NCBI GenBank assembly: GCA_030141605.1
Contig: JAQGDQ010000084.1
Span: 248,001-312,000, forward strand
Direction: 5' to 3'
DNA length: 64,000 nucleotides
Origin: Tubiluchus corallicola
Lineage: Eukaryota > Animalia > Priapulida
Positions 8,198 to 60,257 of the stretch are shown here, piece after piece. Below the pieces are notes generated by a model that saw nothing but the letters and a program-made list of their open reading frames with translations, had not been told where the DNA came from and did no database searches. The position numbers and the translations under genes were made by a program. How positions within the stretch are numbered: the first letter of the stretch is position 1; each line of letters starts with the position of its first letter.

Positions 8198-8781
8198 TTA
8201 ACAAAAAATGCGAAATGACATACTTATCTGAGATCTGTTAGAGCTAGAACTGCTTCCCTTCTGGCAAGGATTTCCTCTTTTGTAAATGCCATTCACGTTG
8301 GTAGCCGTTGTGGCCCAGCTGACGTCCGTCTGTTTGGCTTCGTCTTTTCGTGGACAGCCAAACGCGGCCAGGAAGGCCACCCTGAACCTCTTATTCATGA
8401 AACAGTACGTAATCGGATTGCAACACGAGGAACAATAACCGAGAAGGAACAGATATGATATGGCCGTTGGCGATAGCGTGCTGTATGCAGAGTCACTGTC
8501 ATACATTGCCCACAGATTGATGATGTTAATGGGTGTCCAACAGATGAAGAACTCGAGCACGACAGCGAAGAGCATCTTGATGACTTTGCGTTTGTTGGCC
8601 AGAGCTTTTTCAGAGTTCGTTGCTCTCATTCCTGTCAAAGCTACAGTAGCTGACGATCTAGTCCTTGCACCACCAAATGTTATGATTTGCTGTGCACGTT
8701 TGGGACGTTTCAGATTGAAAATTCTCAGCTTCTTCCTGTTCTGCTGTTTATTTTCTCCCTTGGGGGATAAAACTGTCATTT
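8198..8781 (-). CDS. CCK/sulfakinin receptor-like GPCR, last coding exon (ICL3, TM6, TM7, C-tail)
   Basis: KRKVIKMLFAVVLEFFICWTP and YCSSCCNPITYCFMNKRFR match CCK/sulfakinin receptors. Acceptor TTTCACTGCAG|AA is phase 1, matching exon 3. Stop TAA at 8200-8198. Confidence 0.93.
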
Positions 8782-9924
8782 CTGCAGTGAAAATAGAAAC
8801 ATTGATTTCATTAATAAGCATAAATATCGAGGTAAATAAACTAATTAAAAACAAACATACAATTACAAGCGTACTGAAATATGTGGATATTATACATTAA
8901 AAAGTTGAATTTCTGTAGACATGTTACTTTACTAAGATTTCGTTATCTGTTTTACCAACATCCTGTTGTTTTGGTAAGCTGCATATTTTTATACGAAATT
9001 AACTCATGATTATAATTATCAACAACAAATATTACAACAGCAGAAATGCGACGTCAGAGACATGAGCAACAACAGTGTCGACAATGAGGACGGTCCATCA
9101 GAAGTAAATTTCCACTACTCTTGAAACACCTCCACAAAATGTTAGTGTTATAATAGTTTGAGCTGCGAGCCGTTGTCAAATTTACAGAAATTTGCGTGGT
9201 ACACTTAATGCTTGACCTTTCCACAATGCCATCAATTACTAGAAATTCACAATGTCATCAATTACTAGAAATGTGAAAAGACTTATTGTTCTTGTTTGTT
9301 ACATGGCTTATATATAAAGGGAGACAGTAACTGCCTGTGGTGTGTTATAAATTACGAGCTCTCAGCAACTGCCTGTGGTGTGTTATAAATTACGAGCTTT
9401 ATAAGATTACGTATACGCTTTTTCCGAAGAGAATGAGAATTTTTTAACACTGGACATCTAAAATAGGCCTAGTTAATCTATTGTAAATAAGCCAGTTGCC
9501 ACGTAGTAAACTAACTGTCGTGAATAGAGCGTGTGCCCTGGTCTGACAAGTTTTTGAAGCGGCACCACGATCAACACTGAACCTTTCTTTGGTGCAAGTG
9601 TTAAGTTTCCGTTTAGCATAAAAAGGCATCTTGCTTTTTTTGAAATTACTAGTATTTTTAGCATAGTAAACATTCGACAGACGTGCTGTGGTATTAATTT
9701 GATTAAAATTCGCCGCCATTAAGGTTGATAAATATTTATAAAATCCAGTACAGATGTGGCTGCTACAGCAGGTTTTTGATAAAAGTTGCATTTTTTCCTC
9801 GTGCCAAATTTCACCTGAAAGCAGATTTAACGTTATTATAGATTTAAGATTTCGGGGGCGGGGAGCGGGGTGGGGGTGGGGTAAACTTAACAATAGAATT
9901 TTTCTCTTCGGATTCTGTTAGAAC

Positions 9925-10745
9925 GTGGTCTCAAGTGCCCTCAACAAACATGGTCTCAAGTGCTCTCAATAAACATGGTTTCAGGTACCCTCAACAAACA
10001 TGGTCTCACGTGCTCTCAACAAACATGGTCTCACGTGCTCTCAACAAACATGGTTTCAGGTACCCTCAACAAACATGGTTTCAGGTGCCCTCGACAACCA
10101 TGGTTTCAGGTACCCTCAACAAACATGGTTTCAGGTACCTTCAACAAACATGGCTTCAGGTACCCTTAACAAACATGGTCTCAAGTGCTCTCAACAGACA
10201 TGGTTTCAGGTACCCTTAACAAACATGGTCTCAAGTGCTCTCAACAAACATGGTTTCAGGTGTTCTCAACAACATGGTCTTAAGTGTTTTCAACAAACAT
10301 GGTTTCAGGTACCCTCAACAAACATGGTCTCAGGTACCCTCAACAAACATGGTTTCGGGTACCCTCAGCAAACATGGTTTCAGGTACCCTCAACAAACAT
10401 GATCTCAAGTGTTCTCAACAAACATGGTGTCAGGTACCCTCAACAAACGTGGTCTTAGGTACCCTCAACAAACATGGTTTCAAGTACCCTTAGCAAACAT
10501 GGTTTCAGGTACCCTCAACAAACATGATCTCAAGTGTTCTCAACAAACATGGTGTCAGGCACCCCCAACAAACATGGTCTCAGGTACGCTAAACAAACTT
10601 GGTTTCAGGTACCCTCAACAAACATGGTCTCAAGAGCTCTCAGCAAACATGGTTTCAGTTGCCCTCGACAACCATGGTTTCAGGTACCCTCAACAAACAT
10701 GGTTTCAGGTACCCTTAACAAACATGGTCTCAACTGCCCTCAACA
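9925..10745 (+). repeat. 25-bp minisatellite (AAACATGGTTTCAGGTACCCTCAAC), about 33 copies, inside a dispersed repeat
   Basis: Read directly. Its flanks recur with a single unit at about 61560-61945. Confidence 0.95.
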
Positions 10746-11068
10746 AAAGAATCGGCTTTGGTGCTTTTGAGATATTCGCATAAACCCAAGATGGCGCCTA
10801 CCGTGGCCAAAAATCTGTTATCTCATAAACGATCGAGTCTAAGTAAAAAAAATTATTACTGACTGATAGGAATGGGGGTAGTATATTCCAAATGGGGGTA
10901 GTATCTGATGAGGATGGGGTAGTATATGAAAAATCATCCTGTCTTCCTCTAAATAAACCAAATAGTGTCCTTGGTGCACTGTTACATGTCTTAAAATTTG
11001 GACGAAGACAAATAAACTTGATATGCTACTTGAAAATATCAGTTTTTATTTTACCAAAAGTATCTCAC

Positions 11069-18560: not shown

Positions 18561-19320
18561 TATAGTGAAAGCCTTGCTGTCAAGCGTACAAAATTATAAC
18601 TGCAACGTTCTGTCTCGTGTTCACGTGTAATAATTAGAACTTTTAATAAAATTAATCACATAGAACGGCTTGTTGTCAATTATTTGTACTAGTTGCAAAT
18701 TTTATTCGTGTTTGTTTAAGCAGTTTTACTCATTACAGACTAGCAGATTTCTTTCAAAAATCTCACATCACGAAAATCACAATAATCTGGACGCATTTAA
18801 TCACATTGTAAGTAAAATATCGTGTTTTACACTTTTTAATGCTTATAAGACCATTCTGTTACGAGTTCTTATGATGTAAATCAACTGTGAACTAAAAACT
18901 CAAAAATACGTTAATTATCGAGCTAGCGATGACAGAAAAACGTCTATGACAAACGAAATTAACGGCCAAATTCATTTCGCAACAAGACGCCTTACGTACT
19001 GGTCAAAGCGGCTTATGAGGAACCTACCACCCATTACAGATGACGGCTTATGATAGACAAGCCACGGTTGGCGGAAGACGGCAAGTGGATTATCTTCGTG
19101 TGAGAGGGACCATTGGTTAGTGTAGGTCTAGGTTCGTTTTTCTTGACGCGGCTTTTTCTCCTCGTGGCTTGCACTTTACGGATTATGTCCAGCTCAGTGT
19201 GACACGGGCTTAATACAGCGTTGCAGATTTATCTTTTCGGAATCAGGCTCGATTTACGGTTACTGTCATGGGCACTTTCAGGAGGTTTTAAGAAATTCTA
19301 AAATTGAGAAATTTTCTTAC

Positions 19321-19495
19321 CTGTATACAGCTATGGGCAGAGGTACAGTTGCAGACACGAACCAAACCAAACCAATCATCTTGTAAGCGTGTGACAACGT
19401 CTGCCATCTTCTCGAGAGTAATGGCTGACAAATTGCAAAACACCGTTCTAGAGAAATGGCTACTAGAGTCAGCGAGCTAACGGCTACAGATACGG
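19321..19495 (-). CDS. CCK/sulfakinin receptor-like GPCR, coding exon 2 (TM3, ICL2, TM4)
   Basis: VSVAVSSLTLVAISLERCFAICQPLLSRRWQTLSHAYKMI. Acceptor TTTTAG|CC and donor AG|GTAAG. 175 nt, phases 1 and 2 are consistent. Confidence 0.93.
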
Positions 19496-19608
19496 CTAAA
19501 ACGAAAAAAACGTTACTTATTAGCAATGCAATTTGCTGTGAGAGTTTTGATCAAATAGATCAGATCCCAAGGGCAAACGTCGTTGACTGCATAAGAAAAC
19601 TTCACATC

Positions 19609-31313: not shown

Positions 31314-31917
31314 TTAAAGCAAAACCGGACCCAATCTTGAACTGTAGGTCAAATTAATCTACTCTTTAAAATATTGAAAGAAAACATGCTATTTTTTCAA
31401 CAATGACTTACGTGAAAGAATTATTACCACACAAACACAATTTCACGTTCGTGCCACTAGTTCTTCTTTGTTACATGCATTTCGCTATTCCCTAGTTAGA
31501 CGGACACTAGCGCCTGCATTTCGGATGGTGTTGCACTACCCCTCAATTCAGGTGTATTAGTTTATGACGAACTGCACACGTTCGATAGCTCATGCGTGAG
31601 CACAGTGGTAAACTTGAAATTTGAATTTTTATTTTAAAACTTGCCTAGTTTTAGTACAATAAACTGAATATCTTACAGTAGCACTGTACTTGAATTTTTA
31701 CTTCCGCAGATGCGTGCAACACGCTCGTGGAATGTTTTTGTTTTTGAAAATTATGTTAGTTTGTGATGTCATCAATAGTTAGGTGATTAATTAAGTTTTT
31801 AATCCATTATTTAATTATCAGAAACGCTTTTGCACTATTAATTGTGTTAAAATGAATATTTTTTATCTTCGCTTGAAAATGGCGTAGTAAGTGAAAAATC
31901 ATCCTGTCTTCGTTTAA
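31314..31917 (-). mobile_element. Family A MITE in the first coding intron of the GPCR
   Basis: TTAAAGCAAAACCGGACCC...CCTGTCTTCGTTTAA. Confidence 0.85.
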
Positions 31918-31935
31918 AGGAAAGGCGGTACATAC

Positions 31936-32308
31936 CTTGCAAATAAGCGAGTATGGTGCACACTGCTGCTCCAAATATGAAAGTCCTCAATATGCTTCCC
32001 ACCAACGTGAAGGGCATGCAGAAGACACCCAACAGCAAGTCGCTGACGGCCAAGTTCAAAAGGAAAACGTTGGTGACGGTCCTCATGCGTTTATTCTGTA
32101 TCAGCGTCACAATAACGAGAACGTTTCCCACGAAAGAGAGCACAAATATGACGGCGTAGAGAGCAATTCTCAACTCGACGCTCATCTCCGGAGGAGTGGG
32201 CGCAACTTCCGGAAGTTCCCCTCTAGAAACGTTCGACGTTTGATTTAAACTTTCGTCCACGCTTCTGTTTATCGTATGAAAACTTTGTTCGGTGGGTAAA
32301 ACTGACAT
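31936..32308 (-). CDS. CCK/sulfakinin receptor-like GPCR, coding exon 1 (N-terminus, TM1, TM2, start of TM3)
   Basis: LYAVIFVLSFVGNVLVIVTLIQNKRMRTVTNVFLLNLAVSDLLLGVFCMPFTLVG is typical of CCK receptors. N-terminal sequons NRS, NQT and NVS. Donor G|GTATGT. Start ATG at 32308 (GCCATG context); alternative ATG at 32329. Confidence 0.93.
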
Positions 32309-32701
32309 GGCGACAGTGAATAATTTCATTAAATTTTCTAATAAGTGACTCCACTCATCACTCCATTGCTTCTGAATCACTTCAGTTCATAGACAAGCTT
32401 TAATGTAAAACGCTAAGTAACTTTGTCCATTCAGCTAAGTGCACGATTTCATTTTTATGTGAAAACTTTGTTTTCGTTGAGTTTTGTTCTGACGTGGACC
32501 AAACTCAGCTGCTCTTCTGCTCACAGAATTCCTCTTCGCTGAAGCCAAGTTACAGGTAATATTATGCGCGATGCTCCTGACACGCGAGTCACACACGATT
32601 GAAGCCGCCCTGTTTAGTAACTAATTCACCATCCAACTATAGGAAAACGATTGCCTTCCAAATTTCAAATCTAGAATATAAACCATATTCTGTTTAGTAC
32701 T

Positions 32702-36334: not shown

Positions 36335-37757
36335 TTTCTTTCACGTTTCGCATTTTTATAACACTAAAATGTCACGAAAAATGTACGAAGATTTTATATC
36401 ACACTCATTCTGAAACGCACCCACTCGCTTCATTCATGTAACAAAACGCCTTGAATCTTGAAAATGCGTTTCGAAGATATCTGCCATTGTTAGCCCACGG
36501 CAACAAGCTTTCTCTCTTTAGCTACAACCACATTCAAAGCTTTTTCCAGTCACTGTAGTCTTCAATATTATTTCTGGGCGCTTTTCAACAAAAATCTCAC
36601 AATTATTCGTCAAGAATTAAACATATTTTCACTTCCTGGTGCATAGTCACTCCAATAATGATTGCTTATAAGCTTGAAAACAGTTTTAATAACAAATTCA
36701 GCGAACAGATCTTTTGGACCCCCAAGAAAGAGGCGCCGCGAGATCTCCGCTAATGAAAACGATGCCACGCACCACTTTAGATTGCTTGCAAAAGGGCGCG
36801 TCTACATCGTGAAGCCCCGTGCACTCCCCGTAACTGAAATTCTCCAAGACTGCGTACGCCACGGGCAAAACGGTTTAATTTGTGGAGAAATTTATCGTTT
36901 CCTCGTCAGGGCTAATGATGGAGGCAGAGTTATTTGAACGCCACGACCTTAATTAACTCTTATTTTGACTGGATCAAAAAACTTTTTGTACGTGGGCGTT
37001 AAGCTGCTGTTATATACTGAGCGCACACTTATATATTATCTTACGTTGTCACAACGTTGTTCTTCCAAGTCAACAGTCTGTCAAGAGTTTGATCAAATAT
37101 TATATTAATTATAAACAAAGTACTAACACTATTGTTTTCTTATTTTATGTTTTCTTTTGACTTCTTTCTTTCTGTTTTCTTTCTACTAACCGCAACATAC
37201 ATCTTCTCTTCATCTTCATTCTTCGTTTTTTATTTCACGGCGGCTTAACAAGGTCCATTTACAGCTACCACCATGCAGCAAATTTCAACACTTTAATATA
37301 CATGTTTAAGGAGTCAGAAATTATTTTTATTTTTTTTCAATTATAGAAAAAAGTTGTTCATGCAGTTTGTTTGTCTGCTGGTGAAATAAAGTGAATTTAA
37401 ATTTGAAGCGTTTGCGCAACCGTACGAACATTTTGTTGTGAGAGTGCTTTCAATTTTAATAATTTATTTACTTACTGTTCAAAATCTTACACAAACTCAA
37501 CGTTAAAGAAAATGGGTTTATCATAATCTTATTATCAGCATTACGATAAACCGTCTGAAATTTCCAAACACCGACAAACAATTGGATTCGCTCCTCCCTG
37601 TCCCCTTTAATCAAAATCTTTCCCGAAATGGATTTCGTCTGAGACTGGCTACGAAATACGTGCCGCCTGGATGAATCCTGTTTTTAGTTAATGGATTTTA
37701 TACGTTGGCAAATCGGCACAACCAGAAAATCCGAAAAAATCTGCTACAGAAACGTAA

Positions 37758-38500
37758 ATTGAAAGTGCCTCTGCGGGGATATGGGGTTGTCAAGCAAGCA
37801 GGGGCGGCTCCAAGTTGAATGTGCCTCTGCGGGGATATGGGGTTGTCAAAGCAAGCAGGGGCGGCTCCAAGTTGAATGTGCCTCTGCGGGGATATGGGGT
37901 TGTCAAAGCAAGCAGGGGCGGCTCCAAGTTGAATGTGCCTCTGCGGGGGATATGGGGTTGTCAAGCAAGCAGGGGCGGCTCCAGGTTAAAGGTGCTTCTG
38001 CGGGGGATATGGGGTTGTCAAGCAAGCAGGGGCGGCTCCAGGTTGAAGGTGCTTCTGCGGGGGATATGGGGTTGTCAAGCAAGCAGGGGCGGCTCCAAGT
38101 TGAATGTGCCTCTGCGGGGATATGGGGTTGTCAAAGCAAGCAGGGGCGGCTCCAGGTTGAAGGTGCTTCTGCGGGGGATATGGGGTTGTCAAGCAAGCAG
38201 GGGCGGCTCCAGGTTGAAGGTGCTTCTGCGGGGGATATGTAGTTGTCAAAGCAAGCAGGGGCGGCTCCAGGTTAAAGGTGCCTCTGCGGGGATATGGGGT
38301 TGTCAAAGCAAGCAGGGGCGGCTCCAGGTTGAAGGTGCTTCTGCGGGGGATATGGGGTTGTCAAGCAAGCAGGGGCGGCTCCAGGTTGAAGGTGCCTCTG
38401 CGCGGGATATGGGGTTGTCAAGCAAGCAGGGGCGGCTCCAGGTTGAAGGTGCCTCTCTGCGGGATATAGGGTTGTCAAGCAAGCAGGGGCGGCTCCAGGT
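37758..38500 (+). repeat. GC-rich 56-58 bp minisatellite, about 13 copies
   Basis: Unit ATGGGGTTGTCAAGCAAGCAGGGGCGGCTCCAGGTTGAAGGTGCCTCTGCGGGGAT. Confidence 0.95.
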
Positions 38501-46029: not shown

Positions 46030-46590
46030 GGCATGCAGGTACATCGGCACTTTTCTAAACACCGAAGATGATATTAAAAGTAGAATGCAACAAGCAATGC
46101 ATGCTTTTCTTCACCACAAGAGTGTATTAAATAGCAAGAAATTAAGTCTTAACATAAAACTTCGATTATTTAATGCTTACGTTACCAGTATATTTATGTA
46201 CAACAGTGAAACGTGGGGTTTAACGATTACTCAAGAAAAGCAGATGACACATTTCATAAAAGTCTTCTAAAGAGAGTTTTAAAGATAGATGGCCATATAC
46301 AATCAAAAATGAAGATTTATACTCTAGAAATTCCTTAGAGTCAGCATCAGGATTCAAAGATAAAAATGCCTAGGACATCTTCTAAGATTACAAAATGAAG
46401 CACCAGTAAGAATCGCCTTAAAGGAAGCCTTAAAACCTTGCAAAAAACCACCTGGTAAACCTAAAACAACTTGGATAGCTAAGATGAATAAAGATATTCA
46501 ACAACTTCAACCAACTCTATCTTTAGGAGTAGAAGAACTTACACTGTTAGCTGCAGATAGAAGTGGGTGGAATACTGATAAATGTTGATA
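46030..46590 (+). mobile_element. RTE-like LINE 3' remnant
   Basis: KLRLFNAYVTSIFMYNSETW and PPGKPKTTWI segments with frameshifts. Confidence 0.75.
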
Positions 46591-49129: not shown

Positions 49130-49350
49130 GTTCACTTTTCCGTAAGTACGGTTTGTGGACTCTAAGACAGTTGTGTTGTAGTTCTACAAAAGTGTGTTAT
49201 CAAAATAAAATTGTTGTGAAAAAAAATGAGTTTTTCTTCAATGCCTCTGTTACGAAGAAGTTGTTCCATGTAATTCTCATGGTGCTAAAAACGTTTGAAA
49301 ATCTGTTACTGTATGCTGTAAATACTCAAGCAAAACACCTAGTCACCTAG
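49130..49350 (+). pseudogene. Decayed duplicate of the TTLL4-like gene 5' end
   Basis: 49171-49254 aligns with 49778-49861 (MSFSSMPLLR vs MSLSSMPPLR), followed by an in-frame stop. Confidence 0.7.
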
Positions 49351-49811
49351 CGCTTGAACTGCAGTTGGTGATGACCTTGTTCCTCCTGTGAAAAGCAACT
49401 TCAAAAGCAAACCACTGGTCAAGTGATTAAATGTTAAACTTCTAGAAACAACGAGGTTAATTGTAGCGGACGAAGGGGTGACAGATTCAAAACAAAACTG
49501 CATTGTTAAGCTATTAATGCATATGATAAACATACTGTACCTGCTTACAAACAAAACTGTACTTAACATGACTGTTTCTACGTAGATTACAGTGCGCAAA
49601 ATCCAGGTAAACATTATTATGAGTACGTGAATGGAACTATTAAGTCAATTATGCGGAGTTATTTGAGTAAAGTGGCGCTTGTTTTATATACATTTGAATA
49701 GAAGGTTTTTGAGTCAATTAAGAGACTGATTCTATTCACCGTGAGTCTAATGAACGGCGCCTACTGTATGAGACCTTTGTGTTGCAGGTCTAACAAAAGT
49801 TTGTTATCAAA

Positions 49812-51515
49812 ATGAAATTGTTGTGTGATAAAATGAGTCTTTCTTCAATGCCACCGTTACGTTCTTTGCCTATACTGATTATTTTATTGCTGTTAAAGCG
49901 ACAATTAACAATTACAGCTGGACAAAATATGGAACTTCTTGTCGACCGGTCGTCTATTAGTCACTGGCTCACACTGAATGGACAACAAAACGACACAGAC
50001 GCATCATGTGTTCGGACACTTCCAGCGGTCATCCCAAGTATTTTTTCAAACGTTCCATCTGTCATGAATTTTGGCTTGTATGGGCAAATAGTTCAGGAAT
50101 TGCCAAGCTATTTGAAGAAAAAACTCAAATGGAAATTTAGTGCAAAGGGTGGCACTGCAGATATACAATACTTAAAAAGGATGCTACTGCTTTCGAATTT
50201 CCAATTCACAGACAGTCCTGACTGGATCGCTTACACTAGCATGTTGTACAATAAAACGATGCCGGTCCTCCACGAAGGAGGGAAATTTAACCAGCTCCCA
50301 GGCTCCCAGAAGGAAGCCATGCAAAAAGACACTTTATGGAGAAACATGAAAACTCTGATCTCAAAACACGGACAAGAAGAATTCGATTTTGTCCCACAGA
50401 CTTTCATATTACCAGAAGAATTGTTTGAATTTTATGAGTACTATGGCAACCAGAAAAATCCAGGATTGTGGATTTATAAACCGTGGAACAGAGGGAGAGG
50501 CATCGGTATTGAAGTCATCAACTCGACGATCCAGTTACCAAACGCAGAAATAGTAATACAAGATTATATATCAAAGCCATATCTTCTCGATGGCTTTAAG
50601 GTCGATTTGAGAGTATTTGTTTACGTTTCATCGCTAGATCCGTTAAGGATTTATATACACGAGCTCGGAGCTATCAGAATTGCTACGGAAAAATATTCCA
50701 CTAATTCACTATATGACAAATTCATTCATATTACCAATGTGTTCATTCAAAAGAAAAGTCCAAAATATGACTTTTCAAAACACATGCAAAGTTTGCAAGA
50801 TCTTTGGCGTTACTTAAAACAGAAGGGCATCGATACTAAGCTTATTTGGCAACAAATCCAAGATTTAGTTGTAAAACAGTTTATTGCTGGTGAAAAAGTT
50901 TTGTACAATATGATGAACGCCCACGGTAAGAGCCCTTATTGTTGCAATGAACTATTTGGACACGATATTATCTTAGATGACCAACTGAAACCATGGTTGA
51001 TGGAAGCTAACACCTTTACTGCATTTGGAGATGATAATATCGGAGAGATGTTGCGAGACCGACTCAATTTAGCTGGATATCGTTTGCCAGAAACACCGAG
51101 AATTCGTATTAGCAAAACTGAGAGTAATTTCTCGAACACTTTTGAGCACATCGTAGGACCCACGTTACCAAAGCCATTATCTAGTTCAACTCTCAAGCCA
51201 CACGAACATTTAAAGCGTCTCCACTTTACAACTAACGCATCAGAAGAGGAAATAGAATCTCACATTCTAGACGATCTTACACCAGCTGATGTACGTGAAC
51301 TAGTAGAAGCAGAGGATGAGTACCAGAGACGAGGAGGTTTCCAGCGAATCTTTCCAAGTCCGAGATCTCATAAATACCTTAGATATTTTGAGCAAAGGCG
51401 TTACAGTAATTTACTACTCGATGCCTGGACAAGGAAGTATCATAAGAATCCCAGTAAAGGATGGGAAATATTGGAAAAGTTATGCAAAAACATCAGCAAT
51501 GCTTGTGATTCATGA
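49812..51515 (+). CDS. TTLL4: TTLL4-like tubulin-tyrosine-ligase-family ATP-grasp ligase with an N-terminal signal-peptide-like segment; uninterrupted CDS, likely start at 49833
   Basis: PSIFSNVP, KDTLWRN, FVPQTFILP, WIYKP..RGIGI, QDYISKPYL, KVDLRVFVYV..DPLRIY, ELFGHDIILD..LKPWLMEAN, and the TTLL4-type tail LTPADVRELVEAEDE..RRGGFQRIFP. It is probably a divergent paralog, not the canonical ortholog. Confidence 0.9.
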   Translation: MKLLCDKMSLSSMPPLRSLPILIILLLLKRQLTITAGQNMELLVDRSSISHWLTLNGQQNDTDASCVRTLPAVIPSIFSNVPSVMNFGLYGQIVQELPSYLKKKLKWKFSAKGGTADIQYLKRMLLLSNFQFTDSPDWIAYTSMLYNKTMPVLHEGGKFNQLPGSQKEAMQKDTLWRNMKTLISKHGQEEFDFVPQTFILPEELFEFYEYYGNQKNPGLWIYKPWNRGRGIGIEVINSTIQLPNAEIVIQDYISKPYLLDGFKVDLRVFVYVSSLDPLRIYIHELGAIRIATEKYSTNSLYDKFIHITNVFIQKKSPKYDFSKHMQSLQDLWRYLKQKGIDTKLIWQQIQDLVVKQFIAGEKVLYNMMNAHGKSPYCCNELFGHDIILDDQLKPWLMEANTFTAFGDDNIGEMLRDRLNLAGYRLPETPRIRISKTESNFSNTFEHIVGPTLPKPLSSSTLKPHEHLKRLHFTTNASEEEIESHILDDLTPADVRELVEAEDEYQRRGGFQRIFPSPRSHKYLRYFEQRRYSNLLLDAWTRKYHKNPSKGWEILEKLCKNISNACDS

Positions 51516-55426: not shown

Positions 55427-57085
55427 AGCAACAACAGCTGTCTATTGTGTTGTGTTTGGATTGCATGTTTTTAATGGAGTGACGTTGTACAAAAACTTGT
55501 AAATTTAAACTCCCTCAACGACAGTTAGGCGCAGCCATTTTGACAGTAAATTGTTTCAAAGAAGTTTAGATACCATTTCGTAAATTTTGAAAAAATAATC
55601 AGAGCATTCCTAGCACTCTTCACTAACTAAGAAAAAGTGGAAATGATTTTATCTTCTCAGTAAGATCAACAATGTGTTTTTTGGTGAATCAGTGGTGCAC
55701 ACTGGGATGGTGGTACAGTGACGTTTTACCTGCTGACGGTTTTACCTGCTGCTGAATTTTCTTTTAAAGTTTACATTAAGTTTCAAAACGGGTAGGCGAA
55801 CTGCTAAGTAACTTGCATGAAAATTTTTTACGGCATAATTTAAAATTCTTGTCCTTTAAATCAGGGATTCAAATCAAAAACTCCATACACCAAGTTGAAT
55901 GTTTCTATTTTTCTAACCCATCACTGTTCATAAGAAAATTCATAATTTTTGTTCAAAACATCTTCTAAATACTTGAAAACAAGAAGGACACCGTGTTTTT
56001 TTTCATTTCTAAATGCAATTTTAATGTGAGAACAAAATCGTTCATAAGTCGGCAACTAGCTTTTCCTGATATTCACACAATTATCCTGAATCTCCATTTC
56101 ATGAGGATCATTTTGATACCAAGTTCATCACTCTATGTTATTTCTAAGGTGAGATAATCCATGTTGAAGTTGAGCTGCAGGCTGCGCAGTGAAAAACATA
56201 ATCTTGAGAAAATCGCTGTTAAAGTTCGCCATCGCGTCTCTACAAAACACTTAGCAACCGCACAAAATGTTGGTTGCTATGGACTTTGCAAGAGCAAATT
56301 GAAGTTACGTTTAAATCCAGTAGATGGCTCTTCCTGACCAAGATCTGGTCTTGTCAACAGAAAAAACCTGAAGCAAAATGGGTTCTTCCACGAGCTACAA
56401 CGGGGAGAAAATACAAGTTTTATCCACAGTTGCAGAAAAGTAGGTAAGGAGTTATAAAATTAGATTTTTAGTATTTTTCAGCATTTTCTTGATAATTTGA
56501 TGCCAGAATACAAAACTCCAATATATTTAGCATTTGTTTTCATAAAAAAAATGTAAAAAAAATCGACTTTTAAGCAAATTTTTGGTGCGTTCTACTTTGG
56601 AGCATGATAACATAGTTTTTTAAAAAAACTAGTTATTAAAACTAGTTAGTTAAAACTATGCCGAATTATGGACGGAAGCATTATTGGTTATGTCACAGCA
56701 TCGCTGCAGGTTAGCTAAAGTTTTTTAGCCGCATTGCACAGATTTTCTTTATGAAGCTTAATCAACCAAAACAAGTAATTAGGCTAATCTTCTCGCGGAG
56801 TTATTGTGGACAGCTAGATTAATTAAATCGAGAAATACGGGCAATCTTTGACGGAATGTTCATTTCACTGCCATTTCGACAAACGAAGTAAATTAGCGTA
56901 ATTTTATCCTAGTATTCAATTTGATCAATTTGATCAATTTGATCACGTATGATCAATTTGAAAGCCAGGATAGGATAAATTACTGTTGATTTGCCTCGGG
57001 GGGGGGGAAGCTCATGTACCGCCCTGGACGCCTCAAGCACTTAGGTACCCGTTACTGCATAAAAGATCTAAGAGAGACCCTTTTA

Positions 57086-58031
57086 CATTGAAATATTGGA
57101 TCCGTAAACTGGAAATGTAGAGAAGCCATTGAAATATTGGATCCGTAAAATGTAATTGTAGAGAAGCCATTGAAATATTGGATCCGTAAACTGGAAATGT
57201 ACAGAAGCCATTGAAATATTGGATCCATAACTGGAAATGTAGAGAAGCCATTGAAATATTGGATCCGTAAACTGGAAATGTACAGTGGCCATTGAAAGAT
57301 TGGATCCGTAAACTGGAATTGTAGAGAAGCCATTGAAATATTGGTTCCGTAAACTGGAAATGTACAGAAGCCATTGAAAGTTTGGATCCGTAAACTGGAA
57401 TTGTAGTGAAGCCATTGAAATGTTGGATCCGTAAATTGGAAATCTCGAGAAGCCACTGAAGTATTGGATCCTTAAACTGGAAATGTAGAGAAGCCATTTA
57501 AATATTGGATCCGTAAAGTGGAAATGTAGCGAGAAATCATTGAAATATTGGATCCGTAAACTGGAAATGTAGAGAAGTCCATTGAAATATTGGATCCGTA
57601 AACTGGAAATGTAGAGAAGCCATTGAAAGATTGGATCCGTAAACTGGAATTGTAGTGAAGCCATTGAAATGTTGGATCCGTAAATTGGAAATCTAGAGAA
57701 GCCACTGAAGTATTGGATCCTTAAACTGGAAATGTAGAGAAGCCATTGAAATATTGGATCCGTAAACTGGAAATGTACAGTGGCCATTGAAAGATTGGAT
57801 CCGTAAACTGGAATTGTAGAGAAGCCATTGAAATATTGGTTCCGTAAACTGGAAATGTACAGAAGCCATTGAAAGATTGGATCCGTAAACTGGAATTGTA
57901 GTGAAGCCATTGAAATGTTGGACCCGTAAATTGGAAATCTAGAGAAGCCACTGAAGTATTGGATCCTTAAACTGGAAATGTAGAGAAGCCATTGAAATAT
58001 TGGATCCGTAAAGTGGAAATGTAGAGAAGCC
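57086..58031 (+). repeat. 41-bp minisatellite, about 23 copies, with higher-order variant blocks
   Basis: Unit CATTGAAATATTGGATCCGTAAACTGGAAATGTAGAGAAGC. Confidence 0.96.
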
Positions 58032-58063
58032 TTTAACAATTTTACAAAATCACCTTAAACCAG

Positions 58064-59423: not shown

Positions 59424-59662
59424 AGAGAAGATTTATTTACTTCGGTGGAAAAGAGCCACATTGATACATAAAGCACTCACTAGATGGCAGTAAAACAATA
59501 AAAAATCAAACAGTTACGTCATGGTTTTCATTACAATAGATAGCGAACAGATAAAGAATTATTATCATGATGAAAAGTGTGACTGTGAAATTCCCAAAAG
59601 AGATAAAGAACAACAGCCACACAGAGCACTTTGATGTTGAGGAACTGAAGGCAAAAATTGAT

Positions 59663-60141
59663 TGAGCGCTGAGACCAAAGATAATGAGAAGCTGTATCGA
59701 GCGCTGAGACCAAAGACATGAGAAACTGTATCGAGCGCTGAAACCAAAGACATGAGAAACTGTATCGAGCGCTGAGACCAAAGACATGAGGAACTGTATC
59801 GAGCGCTGAGACCAAAGACATGAGAAACTGTATCGAGCGCTGAGACCAAAGACATGAGGAACTGTATCGAGCGCTGAGACCAAAGACATGAGAAACTGTA
59901 TCGAGCGCTGAGACCAAAGACATGAGAAACTGTATCGAGCGCTGAGACCAAAGACATGAGGAACTGTATCGAGCGCTGAGACCAAAGACATGAGAAACTG
60001 TATCGAGCGCTGAAACCAAAGACATGAGAAACTGTATCGAGCGCTGAGACCAAAGACATGAGAAACTGTATCGAGCGCTGAGACCAAAGACATGAGGAAC
60101 TGTATCGAGCGCTGAGACCAAAGACATGAGAAACTGTATCA
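59663..60141 (+). repeat. 34-bp minisatellite, about 14 near-identical copies
   Basis: Unit GAGCGCTGAGACCAAAGACATGAGAAACTGTATC. Confidence 0.96.
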
Positions 60142-60257
60142 GCTGTTAGATGAAACTTTTTTGCTCAGTTTGTATTGAAAGTCGTGGACATATAGAGCCC
60201 TGGCTGGAACAAGAGGAAAGCAAAACATATCGACCTTTAATTTTTTTAACTTCTTTT

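Follow-up and report, generated by a model that had tools for sequence, protein, structure and literature searches.

To our knowledge, the TTLL enzymes are cytosolic modifiers of tubulin whose donors are limited to glutamate, glycine and tyrosine. The monoglycylases TTLL3 and TTLL8 carry Met at the position of K283 in mouse TTLL6. The accessible sections of a study of TTLL6 (bioRxiv 10.1101/2020.06.07.139295) describe K283 and K377 as binding the γ-carboxylate of the donor and as invariant in glutamylases, and report that K283A or K377A abolishes TTLL6 glutamylation. According to the same sections, TTLL6 Y265 and S266 hold the donor through their backbone amides, H362 and S363 touch the acceptor, the K283 and K377 positions are occupied in TTL by Glu and Tyr, respectively, and glycylases have hydrophobic replacements at the lysine positions. 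In TTLL3 and TTLL8, which initiate an isopeptide bond on an internal glutamate, both lysine positions are hydrophobic or polar, as described in the accessible parts of two sources (bioRxiv 10.1101/2020.06.07.139295, PMC12340829). In the literature that we searched, with most subscription papers lying outside it, neither a secreted TTLL nor a TTLL4 copy without the donor lysines is described.

We analysed a 64-kb window (the whole stretch of DNA under study) of the priapulid Tubiluchus corallicola. The only TTLL match within it is P0001, the 567-residue product of an uninterrupted ORF at 49812..51515 on the + strand with a Pfam TTL domain (PF03133; E 1.6e-64, 218 bits). The motifs picked out in an earlier note on this DNA are all found where it placed them, within the one open frame 49812-51515; a ~7-residue deletion, a predicted leader, losses of sequons and of basic surface, and paralogue-like contigs lay outside that note. 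The window is otherwise repeat-rich animal DNA of 33-45% GC. It contains, on the − strand, three exons (31850-32386, 19320-19550 and 8201-8896) of one rhodopsin-family GPCR (Pfam 7tm_1), which we take to resemble a cholecystokinin/sulfakinin-type receptor. Tandem minisatellite arrays with spurious long ORFs occupy 9850-10780, 37700-38500, 57030-58050 and 59500-60170, long microsatellites lie near 11.0-12.2, 45.2-45.6, 60.1-60.7 and 62.8-63.5 kb, and a short Pfam DUF6451 match (46031-46267, + strand, E 1.6e-6) is probably a transposon remnant.

Both Pfam domain and fold place P0001 in the TTL/TTLL ATP-grasp family. A structure model of residues 67-561, built from an 83-row alignment (pLDDT 91.4, pTM 0.92), has TTLL6 (6vzq) as its best fold match (Z 39.9, rmsd 2.4, 377 residues aligned), with TTL (8asn) at Z 32.2. 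The closest sequence relative is TTLL4, an initiase-type tubulin monoglutamylase (PF03133): among named proteins the top matches are TTLL4s, with 36-41% identity over ~490 aa, and bit scores against P0001 are 287-365 for TTLL4 rows, 190-202 for TTLL5-like and 150-164 for TTLL6/7/13-like proteins. An LG+G4 tree groups P0001 with TTLL4 (SH-aLRT 98), AU tests do not reject non-TTLL4 placements (p 0.14), and a mixture-model tree does not settle the position. From these sequence comparisons, descent from TTLL4 rather than from TTLL5/6/7 is likely. P0001 and TTLL4 are alike in the N- and C-terminal flanks of the core, the ATP/Mg residues and the initiase Arg. Unlike TTLL4, P0001 lacks K283, K377 and the long N-terminal extension, has two loop deletions, a hydrophobic leader, a neutral core and an ORF without introns, and is multi-copy and on a long branch.

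We mapped individual residues by aligning P0001 to mouse TTLL6 and to homologues, taking residue roles from the accessible sections of the TTLL6 study (bioRxiv 10.1101/2020.06.07.139295). The set for ATP binding, Mg binding and phosphoryl transfer (K125, K174, R219, R241, T263, N264, D346, E359 and N361 of TTLL6) is kept at 9/9 positions, all on the + strand. K172 (50325..50327) corresponds to K125, which contacts the γ-phosphate. The β5-β6 phosphate loop (50475..50507) holds K223 (50478-80), equivalent to K174, and the initiase-type R229 (50496-98) at the Q180 position. The phosphate-transfer arginines R267 (50610-12; R219) and R289 (50676-78; R241) lie within 50604..50684, and the Mg ligands D385 (50964-66; D346), E398 (51003-05; E359) and N400 (51009-11; N361) within 50958..51011. 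In T308-N309-V310-F311 (50733..50744), which corresponds to TTLL6 T263, N264, Y265 and S266, T308-N309 is kept and V310-F311 replaces Y-S. P0001 has the two features of an initiase, R229 at the Q180 position and a residue other than His (T401) at position 362, and the alignment thus bears out the retention of ATP/Mg residues and initiase Arg proposed earlier.

The donor pocket has been rebuilt around this conserved centre. Both donor-glutamate lysines are replaced, K283 by M325 (50784-86, + strand) and K377 by I410 (51039-41, + strand), so that P0001 lacks the lysine pair characteristic of TTLL glutamylases. Lys occupies the K283 position in 255/281 other homologues and the K377 position in 269/281, and both are absent in only 3 of the 273 homologues in which both positions are filled. 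The loop that ends in M325 (50745..50786, + strand) is ~7 residues shorter, with an N264-to-K283 spacing of 16 residues as against 23-24 in 218/275 rows. By alignment and model, a six-residue deletion follows N400 (51012..51050, + strand): the loop from the N361 equivalent to the next helix has 16 residues, compared with 22 in 261/275 rows, and in the model that helix begins at I410. The change is not an assembly error, because the stretch containing TNVF and HMQSL is free of amino-acid change in the X3 contig, which comes from a second study and covers 50229-50869 with seven differences (all listed) and no gaps.

These results uphold the earlier descriptions of a Lys-to-Met change in HKWAL, a loop about six residues shorter and a lost Lys in IKG. 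Other parts of the earlier argument fall away. It had cationic contacts giving way partly to acidic residues, and the K377 position holds a hydrophobic Ile. It had also counted the change from TNYS to TNVF and the loss of SPS as evidence on donor choice; going by the accessible sections of the TTLL6 study, Y265/S266 reach the donor with backbone amides and the partner of H362/S363 is the acceptor. Neither change is therefore direct evidence on the choice of donor side chain. The proposed non-acidic donor gains from the loss of both lysines to Met and Ile, and is weakened by the homologue P0002, which has Arg at the K283 position.

Two described enzyme types resemble the rebuilt pocket in part. 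TTL (8asn, 4i4t, 3tig) shares the fold and the loop length after E-x-N; in PDB alignments it aligns without net gap to the region after N400, with I410 where TTL has Y343. Unlike P0001, TTL carries Glu in place of K283 and attaches its donor to a C-terminal carboxylate, and it matches with only ~51-54 bits. P0001 has neither the Glu nor the Tyr of TTL, only the loop length agrees, and that match is convergent. Met and Ile are of the same kind as the hydrophobic replacements that the accessible sections describe for glycylases (bioRxiv 10.1101/2020.06.07.139295). The pocket chemistry is compatible with that of glycylases; their sequence match is the weakest among the TTLLs (5vlq, 39.7 bits), and TTLL3/TTLL8 are probably not the ancestor of P0001.

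We put the chances at about even that P0001 is a secretory-pathway ATP-grasp ligase that joins an amino acid other than glutamate (neutral, and small or hydrophobic) to proteins other than tubulin. In the mechanism that we propose by analogy with TTLL6 and TTLL4, K172, K223, N309, D385, E398 and N400 would hold ATP and two Mg, an acceptor carboxylate would be phosphorylated, and R267 and R289 would stabilize the acyl phosphate. R229 would favour an internal glutamate as acceptor, that is, branch initiation. The amino group of the donor would then attack, with the donor's α-carboxylate held by R289 and the backbone amides of 310-311. The donor side chain would sit in a pocket where M325 and I410 take the place of the two lysines; glycine-like or hydrophobic donors would fit such a pocket. 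The product would be an amino acid attached to an internal glutamate through an isopeptide bond. ATP is present in the lumen of the ER and Golgi. We infer the translation of the leader and the location, activity, donor and substrate of P0001.

The remodelling can be dated relative to one homologue. P0002, a 465-aa sequence without its N-terminus, shares 57-60% identity with P0001 and scores far above the other matches (577 versus 362 bits, best 150 matches among 1.84 billion representatives). Both loop deletions and the full catalytic set recur in P0002, Phe occupies its K377 position, and the TN-x-S sequon is retained. Because both deletions are common to this 59%-identical protein, the remodelling is old. 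P0001 and P0002 group together at 100%; the stem of this clade measures 0.66-0.76 substitutions per site and its tips ~0.35. At 33 near-invariant columns the consensus is kept at 28 in P0001 and 29 in P0002, and identity between the two proteins is 79% at these columns compared with 52% at 90 variable columns (p=0.012). Run X5 contains a diverged relative in three pieces, of 208, 127 and 230 bases, which carry 71 differences and no gap. This column conservation and the gapless X5 pieces show that the subfamily has been under long-term purifying selection. The top 150 matches in the set of 50% representatives contain no member other than P0002, and none was found with P0002 as query. A search of shorter proteins gave three matches, all ordinary or distant, a search of metagenome contigs gave 0 loci of the subfamily, and the ESM Atlas queried with P0002 returned generic TTL clusters only. 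One 4.5-kb metagenome contig has a distant TTL-family match (L001:1727-2641, 27%).

In run X2, 71 contigs match the ORF region at 80% identity or more. Many of them, paralogue-like and from the same animal, fall on the TTLL4-type C-terminal region (51212..51476, + strand), where up to 11 contigs differ at one site; the long pieces listed are gapless. The loose ends of these contigs still read as TTLL-like coding sequence; in one of them an acceptor-like end precedes 51259, and another has Gln at the position of the initiase Arg (in a 30-base loose end only). Run X6, which we guess to be RNA, matches the ORF only at 51229-51391 and at 83% identity, that is, as a relative. This stacking of contigs, which does not give a copy number, indicates that the animal probably has many TTLL paralogues.

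Such a setting admits an alternative that we regard as serious but rather unlikely: that the remodelled family is real and this copy is a redundant, decaying product of birth-and-death evolution, with Met325, Phe311 and Thr403 partly the result of recent drift. In the two fully listed contigs, X2 49707-50708 (12 differences) and X3 50229-50869, we count 10 nonsynonymous and 3 synonymous variants from codon 40 on, leaving out one further synonymous site in the leader. The resulting pN/pS is 0.9-1.3 on 13 sites; an omega of 0.2 is rejected (p 0.002-0.012) and an omega of 1 is not, and adding partly listed contigs gives 15 nonsynonymous to 3 synonymous. One variant changes the near-invariant D173 (D173Y), one contig is frameshifted by the loss of a single base at 50788 and has 11 other differences, and other contigs are 23 bases longer near the stop. 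The abundance of paralogue-like contigs also fits decay, as do losses in P0001 of conserved pocket neighbours beyond those in P0002 (the equivalents of S266, N268, W284 and P364). Against decay, neither the window copy nor the X3 contig has an altered catalytic residue, and the frame is open for 567 codons. Moreover, the sample of 13 sites is small, the variant contigs may represent alleles or recent duplicates, and the same ratio would result from diversifying selection. The earlier note had named a dN/dS near 1 as the mark of a decaying pseudogene; the ratio is ~1 for the present-day variants, which look neutral, and this does not hold for the subfamily over the long term. This copy may now be under relaxed selection.

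The secretory part of our preferred reading, a luminal ligase with a new donor, depends on the N-terminus of P0001. A signal-peptide-like leader, predicted by hydropathy only, spans 49812..49922 on the + strand, with ATGs at 49812, 49833 and 49848, a hydrophobic core L19-L28 (49866-49895) followed by Lys-Arg-Gln, and a possible cleavage site predicted near the small residues A36/G37. The 10-residue Kyte-Doolittle mean of the core, 3.47, is reached by 0/280 homologue starts and by 3/215 open ATG stretches in the window. Only 71 residues precede the conserved core, compared with a median of 198. A splice-acceptor-like site before the first ATG (49781..49787, + strand) could be the end of a 5′ UTR intron, and a second acceptor-like AG lies inside the leader (49916-49917, + strand). 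An upstream phase-1 signal exon has no candidate in 33-49.8 kb, so that the in-frame leader is the sole one found. A 91-base duplicate (86%) of the ORF start (49771-49861) lies 606 bases upstream at 49165-49254; it keeps the second ATG, and its frame closes after ~15 codons. This duplicate and the AG within the leader leave room for an intron or repeat origin of the hydrophobic N-terminus, and the basic residues that follow the core count against a signal peptide. Met40 is unlikely as the sole start, because a variant contig has Val there. We prefer a leader to an intron or repeat because single contigs cover the region from 49707 and 49760, Met40 varies, the hydropathy is rare against background and parallel cases exist. 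P0001 is accordingly predicted to enter the secretory pathway.

Glycosylation sequons and surface charge bear on the same point. The first catalytic Asn of TTLL4 (the N264 equivalent) lies in an N-glycosylation sequon in 258/281 homologues, and V310-F311 removes this N-x-S sequon from the catalytic N309. A second sequon, on the N361 equivalent in 234/281 homologues, is absent at N400. We compared leaders and sequons in the 165 homologues with the N-terminal part present, of the 285 that remained once 26 near-duplicates, fragments and non-TTL proteins had been taken out. Three of the 165 have a leader: P0001, P0099 of Lingula and the metagenome protein P0296. The first sequon is absent in 3/3 of these and in 10/162 others (p=0.0004, with a threshold set after the values were seen, the query included and 2 of the 10 others misaligned). 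Since leader and first-sequon loss go together, TNVF may have replaced TNYS as an adaptation that keeps the catalytic Asn from being glycosylated in the ER. The total of 5 core sequons in P0001 is unexceptional against a median of ~3, and overall sequon density and cysteine pattern in P0001 are uninformative. The net charge of the core is −2 in P0001, compared with +5 to +32 (median +21) in 72 TTLL4s, and +10 in P0002; P0001 thus lacks the cationic core of TTLL glutamylases. A neutral core suggests that the acceptor is not the acidic tail of tubulin. P0002, with its positive core and retained TN-x-S sequon, counts against our preferred reading. Together, the leader, the sequon loss and the loss of basic surface imply a likely shift of substrate from tubulin to secretory proteins.

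It is decidedly improbable, by comparison, that P0001 is a cytosolic, donor-switched offshoot of TTLL4, convergently similar to a glycylase or tyrosine ligase and acting on tubulin or another cytosolic protein, with a hydrophobic N-terminus that is really intron or UTR. Such an enzyme would be in keeping with the retained initiase Arg beside hydrophobic replacements of both lysines, a combination shared with monoglycylases, with the acceptor-like AG at 49916-17 and with bee TTLL4-like proteins that have the K283M change and no leader. It sits poorly with the lost basic tubulin-binding surface, a leader rarely expected by chance, a Met40 that is not fixed and the joint occurrence of leader and sequon loss in other offshoots. 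We see a slim prospect that P0001 is an ATP-binding pseudoenzyme or a donor-less ATPase, in which the nucleotide residues would serve structure or binding and no ligation would take place: loss of either lysine kills TTLL6 activity, the S363/P364 loop is changed and the bulky Phe in place of S266 could block the site, against which the equivalents of R219, R241, D346, E359 and N361, needed for phosphoryl transfer only, are all kept in both subfamily members over ~0.7 substitutions per site. Because loss of either lysine abolishes TTLL6 glutamylation, it is very unlikely that P0001 is still a glutamylase (or an aspartylase) with other basic residues in the shortened loops compensating, for which P0002 offers its Arg at the K283 position and P0001 the K323/H324 pair adjoining M325; both lysines are invariant in glutamylases and each essential, the K377 loop is deleted, and K323 would need a register shift, yet His-X-Trp/Gln aligns unambiguously.

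Other TTLL4 offshoots with altered pocket loops are simply annotated as TTLL4: two Lingula anatina proteins, XP_013397583.1 (P0099) and XP_013398235.1 (P0146), and P0296. All three resemble P0001 in having no sequon on the N264 equivalent, and P0099 and P0296 also begin with signal-peptide-like leaders; they differ from P0001 in their deletions and residues. P0296 lacks both lysines. P0099 has a shortened pocket loop, its K283 column reads Arg or Lys depending on the alignment, and it may keep one or both lysines. A common origin of the offshoots, P0001 included, is neither shown nor rejected (AU p 0.36-0.52).

K283M is not unique to P0001, because it recurs in TTLL4-named bee proteins (P0007, P0110, P0190, P0193 and P0195-P0209), which have Met (once Ile) at K283, keep K377 and have no leader; P0007 also lacks the initiase Arg. 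A separate donor switch in this conserved bee paralogue is possible. Among metagenome proteins, the TTLL4-like P0016, P0114 and P0155 have Asn at the K377 position and a loop one residue shorter, and P0028-P0030 and P0181 are compact TTL-domain proteins of 348-384 aa with E-x-Q for E-x-N and a short loop.

Tentatively, and with somewhat less than even confidence, we suggest that TTLL4 copies have been redirected to the secretory pathway in several invertebrate lineages and have expanded into a family of luminal ATP-grasp ligases that would place amino acids other than glutamate, or amines (possibly as cross-links), on glutamates of secreted proteins; on the same tentative footing, the paralogues would differ in which donor they use and in whether they initiate or elongate.

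The two-lysine rule of specificity drawn from the TTLL6 structures would find a natural test in a TTLL4 offshoot with a rebuilt donor pocket, and such an enzyme could add a fourth donor to the three in use. Should this copy be decaying, interest shifts to its intact paralogues. If the leader is real, P0001 would represent an undescribed ATP-driven amino-acid modification of secreted animal proteins and a peptide-ligase scaffold with new selectivity. Should the wider scenario of luminal ligases be true, the chemistry of the 'tubulin code' would extend outside the cytosol.
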